This document shows, piece by piece, positions 4,102-64,000 of a DNA stretch of 64,000 nucleotides. Position 1 is the first letter of the stretch, and each line of letters opens with the position of its first letter. The translations under genes were made by a program, and so were the position numbers. The notes under the pieces are model-generated. The model ran no database searches and was not told the DNA's origin. It saw nothing but the letters and a program-made list of their open reading frames with translations. The stretch is taken from assembly GCA_951406725.2 (NCBI GenBank), contig CATOCA020000001.1, forward strand, positions 9,982,001-10,046,000. Reading direction: 5' to 3'. Source of the stretch: Octopus vulgaris. Lineage: Eukaryota.

Positions 4102-4165
<64 letters not shown>

Positions 4166-4415
4166 TTTAGCAATTAAGGACAACTTCTTAATAAGGAAAA
4201 CTTAACAAGAAATTATCAGGTAGATAGCGTGAAAGACCTCATAAGAGAAAAAATTTCGAAAATAATTCTTTCTTATTGAACATATTAATTTATATATAGA
4301 GGGCATTATTATACATACATGTCACACGCTAAGAGTGACAAAATTAGTCATTTCTACCAAAAAATTTACTAATCCCACCGAATGCAATTTTTCAAAGTAA
4401 GACATTTAAAAATAT

Positions 4416-4464
4416 AGACTTGTATCACCTGTGATTTCATACCTCTGTATTCATCAGCAAGCCT
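4416..4464 (-). ncRNA. Type I hammerhead ribozyme (antisense to the PLE ORF)
   Basis: Minus strand reads AGGCTTG CTGATGA ATAC-agag-GTAT GAA ATCAC-ag-GTGAT A | CAAGTCT. Complete catalytic core, all three stems pair. Confidence 0.88.
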
Positions 4465-4774
4465 GAACGTATCATCAATGAACGGCCATTTACCGGATGT
4501 AATATATGTAAACTCACCCAGGTGCTTCGTTGATGTTGATCAGTTAGCTGCTCGGCTTAGACGAGGTAGGGTCGTTTATTTATGATATGCTTCTTTCTCG
4601 CTTATAATCACCCCACATTACTGTATTGTTAAAACAGTATAGTTTTTTTTGGTGCATCTAAGTTGGGTACCATATTCAAGTAAATTCTTTTAAATTAACT
4701 TGAATCTTTATTGCTTTTTGAATATATTCCCATACAGTCTGTATGTTTTTCTGGTACTTAATTTCTCAACAAGA

Positions 4775-7615
4775 ATGGAAAAAGTAAACATTGAGTTCTC
4801 CCCTAAAGACATCCCCTTACATAGTATAGATGAATATAATTGGCTTCTCATTCATAGGATTAACGATTTCATTAGAAGAATCAGGTGGAAAACGTACCAT
4901 TTTGATGTCAAACAGAAGAAACCACAGGAAAAGAATACCGAAAAGAATTTTAGAAGAATTTTTAAAAGTAGAAAAAGCCCACCTCAGAACCCATTCCTGG
5001 AGAACTTTGAGAAAGACTTGCTGAATCTTATAGATGATATTAGCTTCTAGGAACACCCGTTAAGATATAACCCTCACCTTAGACACCTTAGGAACTTTAT
5101 TCAGTCAACCCGGTGCAAACATGGAATCCTAGTACCAGCAGATAAAACGGGTAATATGTATAGAGTTGATTACGATATTTATAGCAAATTAATTAGGAAG
5201 GAACTAAACTCCAAATATAAAATTACGACTAAGAACAATTTGAAAAAAGTAAACATGGAAATGAAAGAGATCATGGAGAAACTAAATTTAACGGATAGAA
5301 CAGAGCCACTTAAACCGTGTGAGCCTAGGATCAACCTTAAAGACCACAAAAAGAATTTCTTGGAAAACCCTTCGGTAAGGCTGATCTGTCCAACTAAGTC
5401 GGACATTGGCCGACTTAGTAAATCTATCCTGGATACTGTTCTACCCCAAATAACCCCTCTTCTCCCCTTAAACCTATGGCTAAGTACGGACGAAGTTCTA
5501 AAATGGTTTAACTCTCTAACTAATACTAGTAGTCTGTCCTTTATTCAGTTCGATATTAATAGTTATTACTCTAGTATTTCCCCTATCTTACTCAACAAAT
5601 CACTAATATTTGCCATGAATCGCTCCCTCATATCTAGAGAAGAAATCAATATTGTGCTACTAGCTAGGAAGACATTTATAGAATTTGAAGATAAATTATG
5701 GACTAGAGCAGATACACCAAATTTTTTTGATATACCAATGGGTTCCAGTGATTCGGCTGAGGTAACCAACCTAGTAGGCGCATATCTATTAAAATGCATA
5801 ATCAAGGACATCCCAGAAATACAGGGGGGTCTATATAGGGATGATGCTCTGTTTGTTATCCCTAGTAATAATAAATCTGTTATAGAAAGGATTAGAAAGA
5901 AAATTAATAAGTTCTTTAAGGATTTCAACCTCAGTATAACGTATGAACCGGGCACTAAAATAGTTAACTTCCTAGATATTACGCTAGACCTTAACTCCAA
6001 GCTACATTACCCATTTAGAAAGGAAGGCGAAATCACGAATTACGTAAATAAATTATCAAATCATCCCCCAAATATAATTGAATCTTTAGTAAGAAATATT
6101 TCATTAAGAATTTCAAAATTATCATCCAATAAGGATATATTTAACTCCCATTCTGAGCATTATAATGCGGCGTTAACTAAGGCTGGATACAACCAAAAGA
6201 TTACATTCGTTGATAAGGAGAACCCACGTATTCCTAATGAAGAAGTTATCAGTAATCACGTAAGCAGCAATACAGACCAAGCCCGAAATAAAAGTAGAAT
6301 TAAATTAACGGTAAACGCTAATCTAGCGTACAGGCCCAACAATTCAAATAGAAGCATTGACCAGAACATAGGTAACTCGGATAATATCAAAGTAGATAAA
6401 CCTAAGATACACACAAATAAAAATAAAAATAATGGTAATAAATACAATAACTCCGGTGAGATGAATAGTAATAATTCTACGAACCCTAAATTTAATAGAA
6501 AAGATATATTATGGCTGAATATTCCTTTCAACTGTGCGATACAATCGGATATACAGAACAAATTCAAAGTAATTCTGGAAAAAAATTTCCCTATCTCTCA
6601 TAGATATCATAGAATTATTTCTAGGAAAACAGTTAGGATTTCTTATTCAACCCTCCCAAATATGTCCACTTTAATAGCTAAGATTAATAATAACAACATT
6701 AAACTAGCCAGGAAAGATAGAAATAAAAATAATAATATCAGCATGAATACCAATAGCAATTATAATAATACTACCAACAATAAAAACAGCAATAGTAACT
6801 ATCAAAACATAGGTGAAATTAGTAACCACAGAATGACTAATAACATTAACATTAATAGTAATAATAACAATGCCGATATTAATAGAAGTAATAATGTTAA
6901 TAATAGAAATAATAGAAATAAGGCTAATGGAGAAAATAAGGAGAATGAAAATATCAGTGATATCTATAACAACAATATGCAGTCGGATAAAAAGACTAAC
7001 AATAATAGTAACATTACCAATAATATAAGAAATCATGGTAGGACTTTAGACCTAAATGATGAAACAGAAGGATCAATAAATAATAGCAATACTTTAGATA
7101 TCAGCACCAACTATAGAAATGATAATCAAAATAATAGGAACCTAAGACATCTACCCAAGAATAATCCAAAGCCTGAAGTTGTTCCTCCTGTGTGTAAGTG
7201 TAGAATAAAATCAAAATGCCCGGCACCTGGTCTATGCGGGGAAAATAATGTAATCTATAAATGTACCATATCCACGGAGAATAACAAATATTTTTACATT
7301 GGATGTACAATTAATTTTCTAGCCAGAGTCAGAAATCACATCTCGTCTTTTAAATTACGTCATAAGGCTGGTACCACCACACTTTCAAACAAAATCTGGG
7401 AACTCAATAATAATAATAATAATTATAACCTTAATTGGGAAATAGTTAGGAGAGCAATTCCGTATAAAAATAGTAGGGTTGGTTGCCAACTATGCTCCAT
7501 GGAGACGTATGAAATTCTAAAGCATAGAAAACATAGAAACTTATTGAATAACCATATCGAACTAGGTCAAGTTTGTGTCCACGCTAAATTGAAGACTTTA
7601 AAATATTTTAAATGA
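4775..7615 (+). CDS. Penelope-type reverse transcriptase + GIY-YIG endonuclease, about 946 codons, interrupted by one in-frame TAG at 5048-5050
   Basis: FSPKDIP..FIRRIRWK N-terminus and VPADKTGNMY lie in frame across the TAG. RT motifs FIQFDINSYYSSI, PMGSSDSAEV, LYRDDAL, VNFLDITL. Linker CKCRIKSKC (CxCx5C). Endonuclease NVIYKC..YIGCT..RVRNH, CQLCSME, CVH. Confidence 0.9.
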
Positions 7616-8637
7616 TTAGAATATTCGTAACTAGATAGATAGATAGATATAACTTGTTTTTTACTAGTATAGCACTGCTTTAAGTAGATAACTAAGAGTT
7701 CTCACACTACAGTTATCTTTTTCCTTATATCTGCATCAGTTTTTTGAGAACAGGGAAATGAATAGTACTTATACGCTGCTTAATTGAGGCTTTATTTAAT
7801 TTCAAACTCATAATTTTAAATCTTAATTTTAAATCTTAATTGTAATTTTTAATTTTAATTCTTAACTTAATCTAATTTAAGTAGCATAACTCTAATAAAA
7901 TAAAATGAGTTACTAAAGCCCCATAATTCTATTTCAAAATTAAATAAATTAGGCTACTCCCTCGGTGATAATATGATTATCTTCATTATGATAGACAATC
8001 CCCTAACACCTTGTAAATGATCTTCTAAGATTTGACCTGTAGTCCGTCAATATATGAATAATAACGGCAACTCCTTAAGACAATAAAATGAATAAAGTAA
8101 ATAAATAAATTTTAATGACTTTTTGATAAGATTATACTTAGATTTTCCTAATGTATTTTCTTTTGATCTTAGCATCTGACCCCTAAACCCCTGACCGTGT
8201 TATCTCTTTAGATTCTCTTTAAATTCATAGCTGATTTCAACAGCAATAAATTAGCTGTTTTACTGGTCAAAGAATAATATTCTCCTCTAGTTCCTAGATG
8301 CCTGTAAATTAAAACCAGACTTGCCGTCTACTAATTCTTCTGTATAACTAGAACCCTCTTTTTTTCTTTTTCTTTTTTCCCTTCTTTCCCTATTTCTTTC
8401 TCTTTTCTCTTTTTTCTTTTCCTTCTTCTTATTCTCTTTTTCCTTTTCTCTTCTCTTTTAGTCCCCTCCCCCCTTTTTGCTCCCTCCTCCTTTATTTTCT
8501 CTCTTTTCTTCTATTCCCTTCCCTTTTCTATTCTTTGCCTCTCTAGAAAGCCCTTCAGCCTTTAAAAGTTAAATAGCTACAGCCTCGTGTAAATAGCAGT
8601 AATTGTGATTAATGTGGCAAATACCTAATCATATAAC

Positions 8638-8928
8638 AAGAATTGATACCTACCTCATTGTGTTCAACCATTGATAAATTTATCGCCTGTGAATATGAAA
8701 TTCCTCTTCATTTCTCTGGAAATTTACATCTACACCATTGGAAATTGTGCATCTATACAAAGGATTAATTCACCCTCTCTGTAATGCTAATAAGCAGGAA
8801 TTGAGACCCACCTCGTTGTGATTAACAATGGATAAATTTGTCGTCTGTGAGTATGTAATCCCTCATCATATCTCTGGAAATTCATATGTGCACTATGGAT
8901 TAGGTCACCTTCTCTGTGATGCTATTAA
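8638..8928 (+). repeat. Diverged tandem duplication (period about 158 bp) in the PLE 3' region
   Basis: GAATTGATACCTACCTCATTGTG..CTCTGGAAATT..CTCTGTAATGCTA recurs as GAATTGAGACCCACCTCGTTGTG..CTCTGGAAATT..CTCTGTGATGCTA. Confidence 0.8.
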
Positions 8929-9074
8929 AACTTTTTTAAAATTCTGTGATAAGACTGTACATCATCTTTAAAGAACTTTAATGAACTTTGGAAATCTGTT
9001 TATGTTACTTAATTATCTACATTACTTCATGAGTATAGCCTCAACCACTAGGATGTCTAGAGAACTCACATGTA

Positions 9075-9165
9075 TTTTAGCTGATGAGTACGGGACACGT
9101 TTATATGCTGTAATTTTTGCAACTTTTAATAAAGCCTGTCCTTGTATGAAACGATTGTACTAAAA
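9075..9165 (+). ncRNA. Type I hammerhead ribozyme with minimal stem III at the PLE 3' end
   Basis: TTTTAG CTGATGA GTACGGGACA..TGTCCTTGTAT GAA AC-gatt-GT A | CTAAAA. Predicted cleavage after 9159. Confidence 0.88.
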
Positions 9166-9192
9166 ACCTATCCATTCTTGTTGCTTCTTTCT

Positions 9193-9231
<39 letters not shown>

Positions 9232-11896: not shown

Positions 11897-14800
11897 GCAT
11901 CGTTTTATGACTACGAAGATGACTAATGAATCCAGCTTTACTGAGGCAGGGTCTTGCACTGACATCGCATGTCAGAATCAAAGGAAGACCCTTCCCTTCT
12001 GAAAGTGTACAAGCGATGCCCTTCCTGGCGGGATGTCAGGAAGGGCATCGCTTACTTTCCTTACTTTCTCATGTGCAACTCGAGATTTCTGAAATGTGGC
12101 TGTCCCCTCATGCACAATCCTTCTCCACCTGCTACGATCAATAACTATGCCTTCCTATGTGTCAGGAGAGATGCAAGCATCTCTTAAGGAAGCCTTCAGC
12201 AAGTCCTTATACCTCTTTTTTGGTTTATGTGGAGGTCGTTCTTTTTTAGCTAACTCTCCATAAAAGAGTTGTTTTGGCATCCTTGAATCCTTCATTCTGA
12301 CCAGATGACCACACTCCATCTGAGCCTTTGCTTTAACACAAGAGCTTCTATACTTTCACGCCGAGAGCCTTCGAGTATTTCAAGATCACCGATGCGGTCC
12401 TTCCACTTAATGCCATAGATCCGTCTGAGGCACATCTGATGGAAACATTGCAGTTGTTTAAGGTGGTATCCATATATGACCCACGTCTTGCAGGCAGAGA
12501 GAAGAGAAGGGAACACACATGCCTTGTACACCTTTATCTTTGTCTTTCTGCATATGTATCGCGGACTCCATGGGCGCTTTTCTAGCCTTCCGAAAGCAAC
12601 ACTTGCTTTCCTAATTCTATATGGAATTTCATCATCCACATTCTATATGGAATTTCATCATCCACATTGCCATATCTATTAATAGTGCTTCCCAGGTAGA
12701 CAAAGTGATCGACTACATCAAGTCGTTTACCATTCACATAGATATTTGGTACACTATACTGCTTACCAGGGGCAGGTTGATGCATGACAACAGTTTTCTT
12801 GAGATTGACTGTCAATCCTAAAGCAGTGCAAGCATCAGAGAATGCATTCAAAATGTGTTGCATATCAATCTCTGTGTGTGCTACTAGCTCAAAATCATCA
12901 GCATACAAAATGTTTTTTTATGATAGAGGTAAATATCTTTGTTTTTGCAGCAAGGCCCCTGATATTAAATATGTTGCCAGAGGTTCGATAATGGACGTAA
13001 ACACCGTATCTGCAGTTTCTGAATGCAATACAGAACACCATCGCGAAATATATGGAAAATAGGGTCAATGCCAGAATATGCCCCAGTTTCAGTCCATTTT
13101 GTATTGAAATGAGCTCCGACATCTTCCCTCTAGCATTCACCCTACCATTCATATCTTCATGAAAAGACCTAACCAAAGCAAGGAACTTTTCAGGACCCCC
13201 AATTTCTGGAGGACTTTCCACAATGCTTTTCTATTGACGGTATCAAAGGCTTTTGTCAGATCGACAAAAAGCTGATACAAATCAAGACCCTGTTCCACAC
13301 ACTTTTCCTGTCTAGCTGAAAAGATCATACCAGCAGTGGCACGTCCCACACGAAAGCCAGATTGATTTTCTGGAAGAACACAATCTGCAATGTATTTCAG
13401 CAGACGATCCAGAAGTATCTTGCATAAAACCTTTCCTACAGCAGACAGCAATGATACTCCCCTATAATTACCACAATCATTCCCGCTGCCCTTTCCCTTA
13501 TACAGAGCCACCATTACAGCATCTCTCCAGTCTATACCTTACCAAACAAAGAGTGAAGTTTCTGCAGAATTTTCTCACCACCATGCTGTAACAACTTCGC
13601 TTGTATGCCATCCATACCCGGAGACTTCCCATTATTCAACCTTGAGACAGCCATTGCAACGTCTTCCAACTTTCGTTGTTCTGCGAGTGCTGCCTTCACA
13701 GGCAATCCAGGGATGAGATTGAGAACATCCTCACTAACTACAGACTGTTGATTCAAAAGTTCATCAAAGTGTTCTTGCCACCTTCGCAGAATTCCTTGTG
13801 AATCATGAAGAACTTCTTTACCATCCCTGCTTCGAATTGGTGTCATCAGGGAAGACGTCGGTCCATAAACTTCTCGCAAGAGACCATACAGCAACTTTGT
13901 GTTATTGGAATCTCATGCCGCCTGTATCTCGTCAGCCTTCTTACTCCACCACGTATCCCTCATCTCTGAGAGCCTTTGCCTCACACGTGATTTTACGTCC
14001 TTGAGTTCCCTATGCAACACTTCCCTTTCGTGTGATTTTGGTTACAAATAGCGTGACAATGTACGCCTTTTATCATCCAATAAATCATCTATATGTTCAT
14101 CATTTTCTTTGAACCAATCTTGATGCTTTCTTTGTATCAATCCCAGAACTTTCCTGCCTATATCATAAACTGACTTTTTGAGGTTCGGCCAATCTTCCCC
14201 AATATCTGCAGCATTCATTTCCTCTCGTAAAGTTCTCTTCACACTATTATACCAACATTCAGTCTTTTACTGTTGCACGTACTAGGCGGTGGTCAGTCCA
14301 ACACTCAGCTCCACGAAGAACACGATCACACTGTACATCCTGTCTGTCACGCACCCTAACTAGGATGTAATCCAGAATATGCCATTCTTTAGTCCTAAGC
14401 TTATTCTTTGGTTGAAACATGGTATTGGTAACACACAGACTCAGCTCTTCACACATCTGCAGCAAAAGCATGTCATTACTATTACACTTCCCCACCCCAT
14501 GCTTTCCAATTACAGTCCATGTGTTAAAATCCCTACCCACTCTAGCATTAAAGTCACCCAGTACGATGACTTTGTCTGCCGAGGGATATTTCTTATAATA
14601 CCCTTCAAAGCATGGTAGAAAGAAAGTTTTTCGTCATCAGTATAGCACATAGTTGGAGCTTACACACTCACCAAGGTCATATAATTTCCTTTAGCCAAAG
14701 GAATTCTCATGGACATAAGACGATCGTTAATTTCGATTGGGAATTCTTCCAACTTGTCCACAAGAGTAGTCTTAACAGCAAATGCCACTCCAGCTTCTCC

Positions 14801-15560
14801 TCTAAACTCTTCATCTCTCCCTTTCCAAGAGAATGTATATTTTCCACAAGATTCTGTAAGATGACCATCTCCAGGTAATCTCGTCTCAGATAAAGCAACA
14901 ATGTCAAGATCATAGCGTTGAAGCTCCTTCGCAACAAGCGCAGTCCTTCTTTCAGGACATTCAGAGGACTTATGGTCAAGCAGTGTCCGTATATTCCAAC
15001 AGCCAATATTCATTATTTTCTTTGGTTCTATCACAGTAGCATGATGACGGCCGGGTTCAGACTGTGATGCTCTGGAACCCCTGCCGAGCCAGACTCTTTC
15101 AGCTGATGTGGTTCCAGAGTCCTTACTGCCATTTATTGTTATACTGTTTTGGTACATCATTGATTTTTGCTTTTTAAGGCTACAGCCAGCCATTCAGTTG
15201 AGACTCACAGCACTATCAACAATCATGAATTAGTTAATCACTTTAATCAATCCAATGTTGTTTTCGTGCAATGCCTGTGCAAAAAGAAATTTTCAAAGTG
15301 AGGAAAGACTGTGCACTGAGTCAATCCCACACACTAAGCAACAGAAGCCATAATCCGAAAAGACATCATCGGTCAACATCATCGGTAACCACTGAGCCGC
15401 AGGTTTTATGTCGCAGTTATCCCAATTACCTGAGTTACCTTCTAGAAGGATGCCCTAACAAAGGCTAGGAGTCCTTTACTCCCAATGGTTTAACCGCGCG
15501 ATCGGGTATTCAGTCCGGTTATTTCTATGTCCCCGCCTATGTTACAGCCTTAAGCATTAA
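11897..15560 (-). mobile_element. Near full-length RTE-clade LINE with disrupted ORF
   Basis: APE, RT (NYRGVSLLS, QSGFR, FVDLTKAFDTV, YADD, FVYLGS) and C-terminal AGFISHLRSH. Many frameshifts and a 26-bp internal tandem duplication near 12615-12668. Confidence 0.93.
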
Positions 15561-16664
15561 CAAAAAGAAAAAGAAAAAAAGAAAAAAAACATTAAACAAT
15601 TATTGGATGGCCGTTGACTCTCAAGAGTTCCTCCTTCCTACATACATACATACATACATACATACATACATACATACATACATACATACATACATACATA
15701 CATACACACATACATACATACATATGTGTGTGTATATGTTTGTGTATCTCTGTTTGTTCCCACAACATCGCTTGACAAACGATGCTGGTGTCTTTACGAC
15801 GCCGTAACTTAGCGGTTCGGGAAAATGAGGTGATTGAATAAGTAATAGGTTTACAAAAAAATAAGCCCTGCGTCGATTTGCCTGTCTAAAGGCGGTGCTC
15901 CAGCATGGCCACAATCAAATGACCTAAAACAAGTAAAACAGTACAGAGTAAAGAGTATATATGCATGTGTGTGGATGGGTGGGTGTGGTAGTAGATTAGT
16001 AGATTGATTGCATATTTCTTTCATTATTTCATCAAAGCTTTCTTCGTCCAAAAAATGCCGATATTGGAATTTTTTGAAATTCTCCCCCCCCCCTCTAGGA
16101 AAAACTTTTTCTAAAAGAATTCCAATATAATCAGCATGTACAAAATATGTCAAAAATTTTACTAAAAATATGAACCCTTCTTTCAGTTAAAAGGAGGCAA
16201 AATCGAGGGTCAAACGCAGACACACACACACACACACACACACACATACGCACATATAAATGTATATATTATATATATAAATGTCTGCTTTGGTCTGCTA
16301 TTTCTGGTTAGATGCCCTTCCAAACATCAACCAATTTACAGCATGGGTTCAGTGCTTTTTATCATACTACCCGACTATTCGTTGCGATTCAAGTTGCAGA
16401 ACTACAAAACCTTTTGGGTGGGGTGGGGGGGGGTCAGCTTCAAGCTAGTGGATAAGAGAATGAGGTAGGGAAGTGCATATGTTTGATCCTCTTTGGTAAT
16501 GAATGACCAGGAGATTGTACCTAGAAAGTTCCCCACCAAGGTACGTATCCGGGCAAATTTGTTTAAGGATGACCGGCAGTCACCCATGCATAACTGCATA
16601 CCCTATCCATGACAACAATGTTATCCAATGGCAATTCAAAGACTGATACAGCTTCGGCGCAGTG

Positions 16665-53426: not shown

Positions 53427-54037
<611 letters not shown>

Positions 54038-54125
54038 TTACATTTTAGTCTCATGACTATTTTTCTTTTCCACTGGGCCGCTGGTAGTGATAAATGTTTA
54101 TCGAATTTTTACTACCCTAAATTGA

Positions 54126-54165
<40 letters not shown>

Positions 54166-54174
<9 letters not shown>

Positions 54175-54524
54175 ATTGGTGAATTGAAGAAATGGAGCTG
54201 AACGCAGATTGAACAGAAATCGTTTTATTTCATTCTACACGTGTTTCGAAAGGCACAAATTACCAAAATCCGATTGAATAATGGGACCATATTGTGTCTT
54301 TCTCTTCAGGAAGAAAATAGGAAATCCGTTGGAAAAACAAAAACAGAACGTTGTTTTTCCAACGGATTTCCTATTTTCTTCCTGAAGAGAAAGACCAATA
54401 TGGTCCCATTATTCAATCGGATTTTGGTAATTTGTGCCTTTCGAAACACGTGTAGAATGAAATAAAACGATTTCTGTTCAATCTGCGTTCAGCTCCATTT
54501 CTTCAATTCACCAATAATGTTTTA
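54166..54524. repeat. Near-perfect inverted repeat (arms about 175 bp, 10-nt spacer) with a hammerhead in each arm
   Basis: Arms 54166-54340 and 54351-54524, one indel seen. Element continues to about 54675, then (TA)n. Confidence 0.95.
54373..54463 (+). ncRNA. Type I hammerhead ribozyme (mirror copy on - strand at about 54227-54318)
   Basis: ATTTTCTTC CTGAAGA GAAAG..CTTTC GAA ACACGTGT A | GAATGAAAT. Confidence 0.85.
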
Positions 54525-54964: not shown

Positions 54965-55340
54965 ATAGTTCTACAATAGGCACAAGGCGTGAAATTTGGG
55001 CGGGGAACAAGTCGAACTCATCGACCTTCAGTGTTTGACTGGTACTTAATTTATCGTCCCCGAAATGATGAAAGGCAAAGTCGACCTCGGCTGAATTTGA
55101 ACTCATTACGTATCGACGGGCGAAATATTTGTTTCTTTATTAGCCACAAGGGAATAAACATAGAGGGGACAAACAAGGACAGACAAACGGATTACGTCGA
55201 TTAATCGACCCCAGTGCGTCACTGGTACTTAATTTATCGACCCTGAAATGATGAAAGGCAAAGTTGACCTCGGTGGAATTTGAACTCAGTTCTTAGCGAC
55301 GAACGAAATACGGCTAAGCATTTCGCGCGGGGCACTAACG
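54965..55340 (-). mobile_element. tRNA-SINE family C with duplicated core
   Basis: ACTGGTACTTAATTTATCG..GACCTCGG..AATTTGAACTC occurs twice. Confidence 0.8.
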
Positions 55341-58784: not shown

Positions 58785-59365
58785 GATATATAGTTCTACA
58801 ATAGGCACAATGCGTGAAATTTGGGCGAGGGGACAAGTCGAATGCATCGACCTTCATTCTTTGACTGGTACTTAATTTATCGACCCCGCAATAATAAAAG
58901 GCAAAGTTGACCTCGGCTGAATTTGAACTCGAAACATATCGACGGGCAAAATATCTGTTTCTTTATTATCCACAAGGGGCTAAACATAGAGGGGACAAAC
59001 AAGGACAGACAAACGGATTAAGTCGATTACATTGGCCACATGCGTAACTGGTACTTAATTTATCGACCCCGTACTAATGAAAGGGAAATTCGACCTCGGC
59101 TGAATTTGAACTCAAAACATATCGACGGGCAAAATATCTGTTTCCTTATTATCCACAAAGGGCTAAACATAGAGGGGACAAACAAGGACAGACAAACGGA
59201 TTAAGTCGATTACATTGGCCCCAGTGCGTAACTGGTACTTAATTTATCGACCCCGTACTAATGAAAGGGAAATTCGACCTCGGCGGAATTTGAACTCAGT
59301 ACTTAACGGCGGACGAAATACGGCTACGAATTTCGCCCGGCGCGCTAAAGTTTCTAGCAGCTCGC
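58785..59365 (-). mobile_element. tRNA-SINE family C with triplicated core (period 183-184 bp)
   Basis: ACTGGTACTTAATTTATCGACCCC starts at 58864, 59047 and 59231. Confidence 0.85.
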
Positions 59366-59901
59366 TGTTATTTCTAGTGGGTGAATGGCCTATTATGGCC
59401 GTTCCTTGATTGTGATGTTGAACTTATTAATGATCTATGACTATTTAATTTTTTCCCACTAGGCCGCTGGTGGCAAAAAAATTCTACGAAATTTTTTGCC
59501 ACCCTATATTGATTAATTATGAATTTTCTGGTTAATTCCGTAATGGAATCGGCGGCTTATATTTGCTGCCGATAAATTTGGCGCGAGTGCGATGATTTGA
59601 AAATTTTAGGTCAGATATTGCCGAGGCAGGGATTGAAGTGCCTCGTGAAAATATCTGCTCCGATCTGGCTGTTTCTTACTGACGAATCTATCGGCCTATG
59701 GAAGATTGGCTTGATTTAATTTAATCAGGTTAGTTTACCATTAAACAATAGATGAAACGGTGCATCGTATAAGAAATTACAGGGTAAATGTTTTTTTAAT
59801 TTTCTCCTGGTTTGCGGAATTAATGTTGTTTTGCGGTTTGAAGCTTTGGCTGTTATTTCTAGTGGGTGAATGGCCTATTATGGCCGTTCCTTGATTGTGA
59901 T
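59364..59901 (+). mobile_element. Retrozyme-like element: 485-nt monomer with identical 53-bp terminal direct repeats and a hammerhead
   Basis: Repeats at 59364-59416 and 59849-59901. 3' end abuts (TA)n. Homologous to 53604-54130. Confidence 0.85.
59672..59776 (+). ncRNA. Type I hammerhead ribozyme, intact
   Basis: TTTCTTA CTGACGA ATCTAT..ATAGAT GAA ACGGTGCATCGT A | TAAGAAA. Predicted cleavage after 59769. Confidence 0.92.
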
Positions 59902-63787: not shown

Positions 63788-63840
<53 letters not shown>

Positions 63841-63844
<4 letters not shown>

Positions 63845-64000
63845 TTAGAGATAGTATAAAATCTTTATAAGGATTTATCAAGTAGTTAGCGTGAAAAGCG
63901 TCATAAGAGAAAAATCCACCATTTTTTTTCATTTAAATGTATTTATTTATATTATATAGAGGGCATCACTATACATAAATGCTACACGCTAGGGGGACTC
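63841..64000. mobile_element. Terminus of an element related to the left end of the 4163-9195 PLE; runs off the window
   Basis: TTATCAAGTAGTTAGCGTGAAAAGCGTCATAAGAGAAAAA..TATAGAGGGCAT..CACGCTA resembles 4212-4331. Follows (TA)n. Confidence 0.7.

Follow-up and report, generated by a model that had tools for sequence, protein, structure and literature searches.

The window analysed here, 64,000 nucleotides (nt) of the Octopus vulgaris genome (assembly GCA_951406725.2, contig CATOCA020000001.1, positions 9,982,001 to 10,046,000 of the forward strand), contains at 4164-9193 a block of retroelement sequence within a (TA)n target tract, whose left part (4107-4163) and right part (9195-9230) were recognized by inspection and self-comparison of the sequence. 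The locus consists of a full-length Penelope-like element (PLE), referred to as family A, and an internally inverted piece of a far commoner mini-element, family B, and is as such a hybrid of two known kinds of element. The boundary between the families is at 4587/4588 and not at the ATG of the open reading frame (ORF). An earlier note, made from the sequence alone, had described a single Penelope element bracketed by two hammerhead ribozymes and lacking a pair of pseudo-long terminal repeats (pLTRs). That single-element reading is unsupported, and 4164-9193 is very probably a composite of two element families at one (TA)n tract. The outward-facing pair of ribozymes originates from the two families, and the absent pLTR of the family A copy is a truncation.

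Family A lies on the plus strand. Its 5′ untranslated region (UTR; 4588-4774) begins with a residual pLTR of 12 nt (4588-4599), an exact copy of 9182-9193 that starts 22 nt after the ribozyme cut, and includes at 4727 a second 3′ terminus of the family, seen as loose contig ends running into (TA)n. The ORF (4775-7615, 946 codons), broken in this copy by an in-frame stop at 5048-5050, is followed by a 3′ UTR of about 1.46 kb (7616-9074), which contains a pyrimidine tract and an internal repeat of 107 nt (8633-8738 and 8790-8896, 80% identical), by the ribozyme, and by a tail of 34 nt after the predicted cut (9160-9193). The distance from the ribozyme's GAAAC to (TA)n is 47 nt, as in relatives. 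The 12-nt direct repeat extends to about 17 nt with a 2-nt gap, and any 12-mer of the tail was present in 60 of 20,000 shuffles of 4163-4776. Of the earlier statement that there is no direct or inverted terminal repeat, the first half fails on this exact repeat; the inverted arm at 4164-4587 has no significant inverted match to 8900-9194, the element's own 3′ end. Family A is a circularly permuted unit of 4594 nt whose two termini lie 34 and 162 nt beyond the ribozyme cut. The window copy comprises one unit plus 12 nt and ends 22 nt short of the cut site.

To the left of this boundary, family B is represented by three segments. The first (4164-4475, minus strand), here called arm H, is the 5′-truncated 3′ end of the mini-element, antisense to the ORF and recognized by its contig depth and by loose ends into (TA)n. 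A spacer of 9 nt at the inversion point (4476-4484) may be filler or specific to this copy, and contigs of other copies have different letters before 4485. The third segment, U (4485-4587, plus strand), lies directly upstream of the ribozyme in other copies, as opposite-strand contig joints indicate, and is flipped here relative to H. The final 6 nt of U (4582-4587) recur at the inner end of H (4470-4475, minus strand), and a flipped segment with such an overlap to the ribozyme arm is the geometry of twin priming.

Both hammerheads of the earlier note, one antisense at 4416-4464 and one sense at 9075-9165, were recovered on their respective strands by a descriptor scan, and sequence comparison confirmed that they have nothing in common outside the core. 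Each is of type I. The family B ribozyme has stems I, II and III of 7, 4 and 5 base pairs (bp) and a predicted cut at 4423/4422, 259 nt from the (TA)n end; the family A ribozyme has stems of 6, 7 and 3 bp, with a long stem II and a short self-complementary stem III, and a predicted cut at 9159/9160. With dinucleotide shuffles of 4163-9195 as a control, the descriptor matched in 6 of 1000, a figure that fell to 0 of 1000 when the stem lengths were made stricter. In Rfam there were 0 matches at the gathering score in the whole window, neither ribozyme reaching it, and the minimum-energy single-strand folds of both differ from the hammerhead fold; cleavage is accordingly a prediction from the motif. 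For metazoan PLE ribozymes, weak activity of monomers has been reported (PMC4209133). Contig variants of family B alter the loops of stems II and III and keep the paired letters shown (loose ends 4413, 4428 and 4587).

Other copies of both families were viewed through public (Logan) contigs of 4 of 24 runs, from four studies, labelled X2, X7, X8 and X9 and placed on the window; X8 is perhaps RNA, and contigs show neither strand nor RNA ends. The listing covered 24 of the 364 loose ends, 40 of the 451 substitution rows and 32 of the 3680 pieces. In X7 a joint leads from 9181 to 4588 with 12 shared letters at depth 14, a connection predicted beforehand from the 12-nt repeat, and A's own post-ribozyme letters stand upstream of 4588 in six contigs of X2, three of X7 and four of X8, with none listed for X9. 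Family A therefore has an ordinary tandem pLTR. Loose ends behind 4727 enter (TA)n in three contigs each of X7 and X8, and the pieces 7172-7765, 7437-7847, 7850-8173 and 8468-8804 assign the 3′ UTR to the same family. The contigs of all four runs lack the in-frame stop, and divergence from the listed pieces is about 1.1-1.3% (27 of 2529 positions in X9, one diverged piece being left out, and 42 of 3290 in X8); the window copy is a slightly decayed member of a family that looks intact at the position of the stop codon. Weak joints such as 4407 to 7630 (side 20) were taken as chance.

The same contigs set family B apart. Summed contig depth, a coarse measure, is higher in the bin 4163-4330 than in the ORF bin 5003-5170 by factors of 393, 36, 63 and 7 in the four runs, and B contigs run into (TA)n at 4176, 4246 (a short piece) and 4293. 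Opposite-strand joints connect 4475 with 4581 (X7, 6 shared letters), 4412 with 4576 (X9 and X7) and 4165 with 4493 (X9), and loose ends behind 4576 and 4587 continue into the ribozyme. Together these joints and loose ends show that the native order of B is U (4485 to 4587), then H (4475 to 4164), then U again. The two X9 joints 4165/4493 and 4412/4576 have the same depth of 59.2, which, together with the lengths, fits a single contig running from the end of H through U into H, with no ORF; no other X9 contig covers 4521, and this one continues into the ribozyme and not into A. To judge from these connections, family B is a non-coding, retrozyme-like unit at least about 410 nt long, which probably occurs in head-to-tail repeats, the tandem form being drawn from that one contig. 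There is no ORF of at least 100 amino acids in 4164-4587 by the ORF list, and no significant similarity of B to the UTRs of A or to a further mini-element of the window at 59361-59900.

These observations bear on the possibility that the locus is a fixed two-ribozyme element, that is, a subfamily of A in which B has become a fixed part of the 5′ end, with transcription from both strands and trimming of both RNAs; we regard this as very improbable. In its favor, the junction is clean and without (TA)n, a bidirectional pLTR promoter has been proposed for rotifer Penelope (PMC3846280), and the contigs shown cannot phase every copy of the ORF. Against it, A's own pLTR junction is present in three of the four runs, B is in large excess and has its native U-to-H order elsewhere, and the letters of this copy at 4521 or 4665 occur in no contig of the four runs. 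Related loci speak against it as well. Among 76 of these (L001-L076), which correspond to the best 80 of 330 related stretches in metagenome contigs and are not independent, several being near-duplicates or collapsed tandems, a hammerhead lies upstream of the ORF start in sense orientation in 20 of the 42 cases with a flank of more than 200 nt and in 13 of the 25 with more than 400 nt, and in antisense orientation in none of either set.

Among the three origins offered in the earlier note, bidirectional transcription of one element with trimming of both RNAs does not fit these results; two elements head-to-head and a switch of the reverse transcriptase (RT) to an unrelated hammerhead RNA both do. 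The note had also named the pattern that would speak for chance adjacency, namely a left module mostly found alone and other ORF copies with ordinary pLTRs. As far as the short contigs show, this is the pattern present: the left module is far deeper than the ORF and stands alone at (TA)n, and the ORF family has the direct pLTR junction 9181 to 4588. Insertion of family A into an older copy of B was rejected, as no remainder of B is present 3′ of 9193.

Several points weigh against this two-family reading. The contigs are too short to phase the 5′ flanks of individual ORF copies, and one that crossed 4587/4588 would escape the listing of joints. The junctions from 9181 to 4588 may derive mainly from short 3′-end copies, summed contig depth is not copy number, and two complete units of B were not seen in the one X9 contig from which its tandem form is drawn. 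No listed contig spans the A/B junction, and the private letters at 4521, 4665 and 5048 are found in none of the four runs, as they would be if the assembly had mis-joined high-copy repeats or collapsed a palindrome. Such an artefact is nonetheless hardly credible, the least probable of the explanations considered: the ORF and UTR are colinear with contig pieces over 4.6 kb, the junction has biological marks (the 6-nt overlap, the short spacer and the 12-nt residual repeat), the runs are probably from other individuals, and Logan contigs drop rare variants.

By motif match to the published description of the clade, family A is assigned as an autonomous Hydra-clade PLE. The ORF contains the RT motif YRDD at 5834, a CxCx5C linker at 7193 and a GIY-YIG endonuclease (YIG at 7295); RWK is found at codon 37 (4883), and DKT, in place of DKG, at codon 123. 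The sole match to GxK[FY] sits inside an Asn-rich insert. The CxxC at 7484 and the CxH at 7574 are invariant in 12 of 12 aligned rows, and an internal CCHH is absent from the endonuclease, as judged by eye from the alignment. The canonical hammerhead in the pLTR and the (TA)n target are further marks of the Hydra clade. Neptune, the first guess, was ruled out by DKT and CxCx5C, against the CX2-5CxxC linker, DKG and CCHH expected of Neptune/Nematis. A protein search with 400 residues of the ORF returned 1383 relatives among 6916 candidates, the best named ones being molluscan. Pfam gave 0 families for the two ORF pieces, its GIY-YIG family matching 3 of the 12 aligned members and not the family A protein of the window; a profile search of the PDB gave one weak match, to a retron RT (E 0.019), and there was no relative among 41 pattern matches in IMG/VR. 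A scan for sigma-70 promoters, irrelevant to an animal genome, found 4 sites against 3.4 expected. Two Asn-rich inserts, at about 6225-6500 (26% Asn) and 6690-7175 (37% Asn), lie in frame after the RT thumb and before the linker. Asn-rich inserts are described in rotifer Penelope (PMC3846280), and the close relative P0003 has a shorter one.

Other insertions in the window show, for comparison, what the normal products look like. Two same-family palindromic insertions with two arms each lie next to one another at (TA)n (53597-54043 and 54166-54524, 94% and 97% self-complementary); the first is related at 71% over 211 nt to family C, and the second has hammerhead cores on both strands (54236-54309, minus, and 54382-54454, plus). 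Family C itself is a retrozyme-like mini-element of about 485 nt at 59361-59900 (plus strand), with a ribozyme at 59671-59777 and an exact direct terminal repeat of 52 nt, ending in (TA)n 131 nt after the ribozyme cut. A diverged second 3′ end of family B (63840-64000, minus strand) ends at the window edge, before the expected start of its ribozyme. The earlier note had pointed to a relative of the left module in this place, and correctly so: 63859-63991 is 76% identical over 138 nt to 4197-4331, in the same orientation, and adjoins (TA)n at 63796-63839. Elsewhere, two copies of a broken 2.9-kb LINE-like RT element (LINE, long interspersed nuclear element), 93% identical, occupy 9-2945 and 13308-16212 on the minus strand, and tandem repeats of about 183 nt occur as related copies in two places, 58860-59300 and 55030-55290.

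Comparable arrangements are found among the related loci. Among the 56 ribozyme cores found downstream, (TA)n lies no more than 200 nt away in 17, and in 10 of these at 44-63 nt from GAAAC, a range that includes the 47 nt of family A. One locus, L041, is a one-unit copy bounded by (TA)n and without a pLTR, and L018, with a pLTR residue of 21-37 nt and an inverted piece of itself, is a same-family counterpart of the window locus. In L059, an antisense tandem hammerhead repeat of 281 nt (2628-2988) stands tail-to-tail with a PLE across one (TA)n tract. Three of the four testable 3′ termini coincide with internal TA runs of 2-5 nt (4 nt at L020:2597, 5 nt at L059:2605, 2 nt at L070:2507 and 0 nt at L024:2444), against a background of 7.5% for runs of at least 2 nt and 0.6% for at least 4 nt. 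These four cases hint at priming in this clade through base pairing with the nicked (TA)n target, in contrast to Poseidon, for which a non-homologous start is reported. Separately, the motif GAGC(A/G)C(T/C) is present about the 130 nt before the start codon in 41 of 48 5′ UTRs of related loci, twice in 34 and usually preceded by GCTC; possibly it is a hairpin signal for RT or translation, and it is absent from window families A, B and C.

The junction of A and B has no (TA)n spacer and may stem from a single insertion. Priming at both target nicks, each on a different RNA, is the most likely course. Both strands of the (TA)n tract would be nicked by the PLE endonuclease. The nick in the top strand would prime on the tail of the B RNA (4164), with copying through the ribozyme to about 4475, and a second 3′ hydroxyl, ending in the 5′ end of A (4588), would prime on unpaired B RNA just upstream of the first stop and copy U (4587 to 4485), after which the two complementary DNA (cDNA) ends would be joined at 4476-4484. 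The favored candidate for the second primer is the nascent A cDNA, which would have passed once round the unit from A's tail and then jumped onto the B RNA; the missing (TA)n spacer would thereby be explained, and both genomic primings would be kept at family tails. The ribozymes would face outward because each arm is primed from its own 3′ tail, each ribozyme serving the RNA cycle of its own family. In support, the PLE protein of Poseidon is reported to nick and extend both strands in vitro and to start inside its RNA (PMC11167929), and an inverted, 5′-truncated copy at the 5′ end, often with a tail of 30-40 nt, is a described PLE pattern (PMC8557442; PMC3846280). We tentatively prefer such a single event, in which a Hydra-clade PLE complex held its own RNA and a non-autonomous hammerhead RNA, each primed at a separate nick, with a template jump to the passenger, and give it somewhat less than an even chance.

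Sequential insertion is possible, if rather unlikely. Here a one-unit A would already have been flanked by (TA)n when B entered the left tract exactly where it borders A. Both primings would have used a single B RNA, as in twin priming, the second through pairing of the last 2-3 nt of the tract; the same letters would result. U ends in a 3-nt run in TA phase that abuts 4588, and three of the four testable termini in relatives coincide with short internal TA runs. Copies of B are abundant, and the window has four hammerhead families located at (TA)n tracts. L059 shows a PLE and an antisense hammerhead repeat sharing a tract, and L041 a one-unit copy between (TA)n. The absence of a remaining (TA)n spacer argues the other way, given the spacers between neighboring independent inserts (54129-54166; L059 2605-2636), and the other two-arm inserts of the window start both arms at the family tail, whereas the end of U is not a listed terminus of B.

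A later deletion is improbable. Here a palindromic B (inverted arm, U and direct arm) would have lain upstream of an A with a normal pLTR, and the deletion would have taken out B's direct arm, together with any (TA)n and the part of A's pLTR that holds the ribozyme. Such palindromic inserts exist in the window, long inverted repeats are prone to deletion, and the divergence of the copy from the listed contig pieces implies time for decay. One breakpoint, however, would have to lie no more than 6 nt from where the remaining arm ends internally, and the other no more than 22 nt from A's cut; that both are natural stops of cDNA synthesis counts against a deletion, as does the lack of microhomology across the junction.

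The single event with two RNAs has its own difficulties. No significant tail motif is common to A and B (a shared motif that seemed plausible by eye was rejected, the best being 9 of 11, with a background fraction of 0.18 for the best A-B pair), and A's protein is only presumed to recognize B RNA; the lack of a shared cis signal weakens the case for co-mobilization. B has no microhomology to A's own upstream sequence, and U's final 3 nt are compatible with a (TA)n primer, so that this part of the evidence favors the sequential route. In rotifers, moreover, the available text of PMC3846280 describes no cross-mobilization between endonuclease-bearing and endonuclease-deficient types of PLE.

By itself, a single composite copy changes little, as (TA)n tracts collect PLE ends and an inverted 5′ arm is a standard feature, and one chimera without a datable age is thin evidence. 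It is a possible fossil of the enzyme of one element carrying the RNA of another. If the single event is true, it would be physical evidence that PLE proteins mobilize retrozyme-like RNAs of unrelated sequence, which the literature consulted argues only from co-occurrence, shared features and pLTR phylogeny. A literature search by title and abstract, with most subscription papers outside its coverage, found no PLE with a heterologous hammerhead arm. If the genome held repeated cases of (TA)n-free junctions between an autonomous PLE and an unrelated hammerhead mini-element, these would assign each retrozyme to the PLE that mobilizes it, and an insertion mechanism with two RNAs and two nicks would gain support. 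Comparable mechanistic support for LINE-1 came from template-switch chimeras. The pair of A and B would also be a concrete pair of substrates for work in vitro.

In twin priming and template-switch chimeras of LINE-1, the inverted 5′ segment begins at the point reached by the 3′ cDNA, and the join shows a short overlap and filler. The window locus resembles twin priming in its inverted 5′ segment, short overlap and filler, and differs in the GIY-YIG PLE enzyme, the (TA)n target and a flank beside the inverted segment that is the 5′ end of another retroelement. With the standard PLE insertion, as described in PMC8557442, PMC3846280 and PMC11167929, the locus shares an inverted 5′ arm, a head-to-head junction, a tail of 30-40 nt, two termini and the priming of both ends at (TA)n. 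Unlike it, the inverted arm comes from another family, the direct pLTR is only 12 nt long, and the middle is B's upstream segment and not a second tail.

Family B, for its part, is like the non-long terminal repeat retrozymes and solo PLE hammerhead ends described in PMC7229834, bioRxiv 10.64898/2026.07.22.740005 and PMC4209133 in being non-coding and AT-rich, of about 400-460 nt, with a type I hammerhead, and like the retrozymes of these accounts in its probable head-to-tail repeats and in being far commoner than the autonomous PLE. Opposite-strand hammerhead pairs 100-700 bp apart are also on record (PMC4209133). The window B differs from retrozymes as a single, internally inverted copy without homology to A's pLTR.

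Family A finds its counterparts in the Hydra-clade PLEs with a C-terminal endonuclease, for which the published description (PMC8557442) gives (TA)n insertion and canonical hammerheads, and with which it shares RWK, DKT, CxCx5C, CxxC and CxH around a conserved E and N, the C-terminal GIY-YIG, and the type of host, an aquatic invertebrate. Its unit of 4594 nt departs from the "generally <3 kb" of that description, a figure that is descriptive and not diagnostic, and the extra length is due to the two Asn-rich inserts and the 1.46-kb 3′ UTR. Unlike 41 of 48 relatives, it is without the GAGC(A/G)C(T/C) motif in its 5′ UTR, and the window copy has a stop codon. The Hydra families in the supplements of PMC8557442 may include relatives of A.

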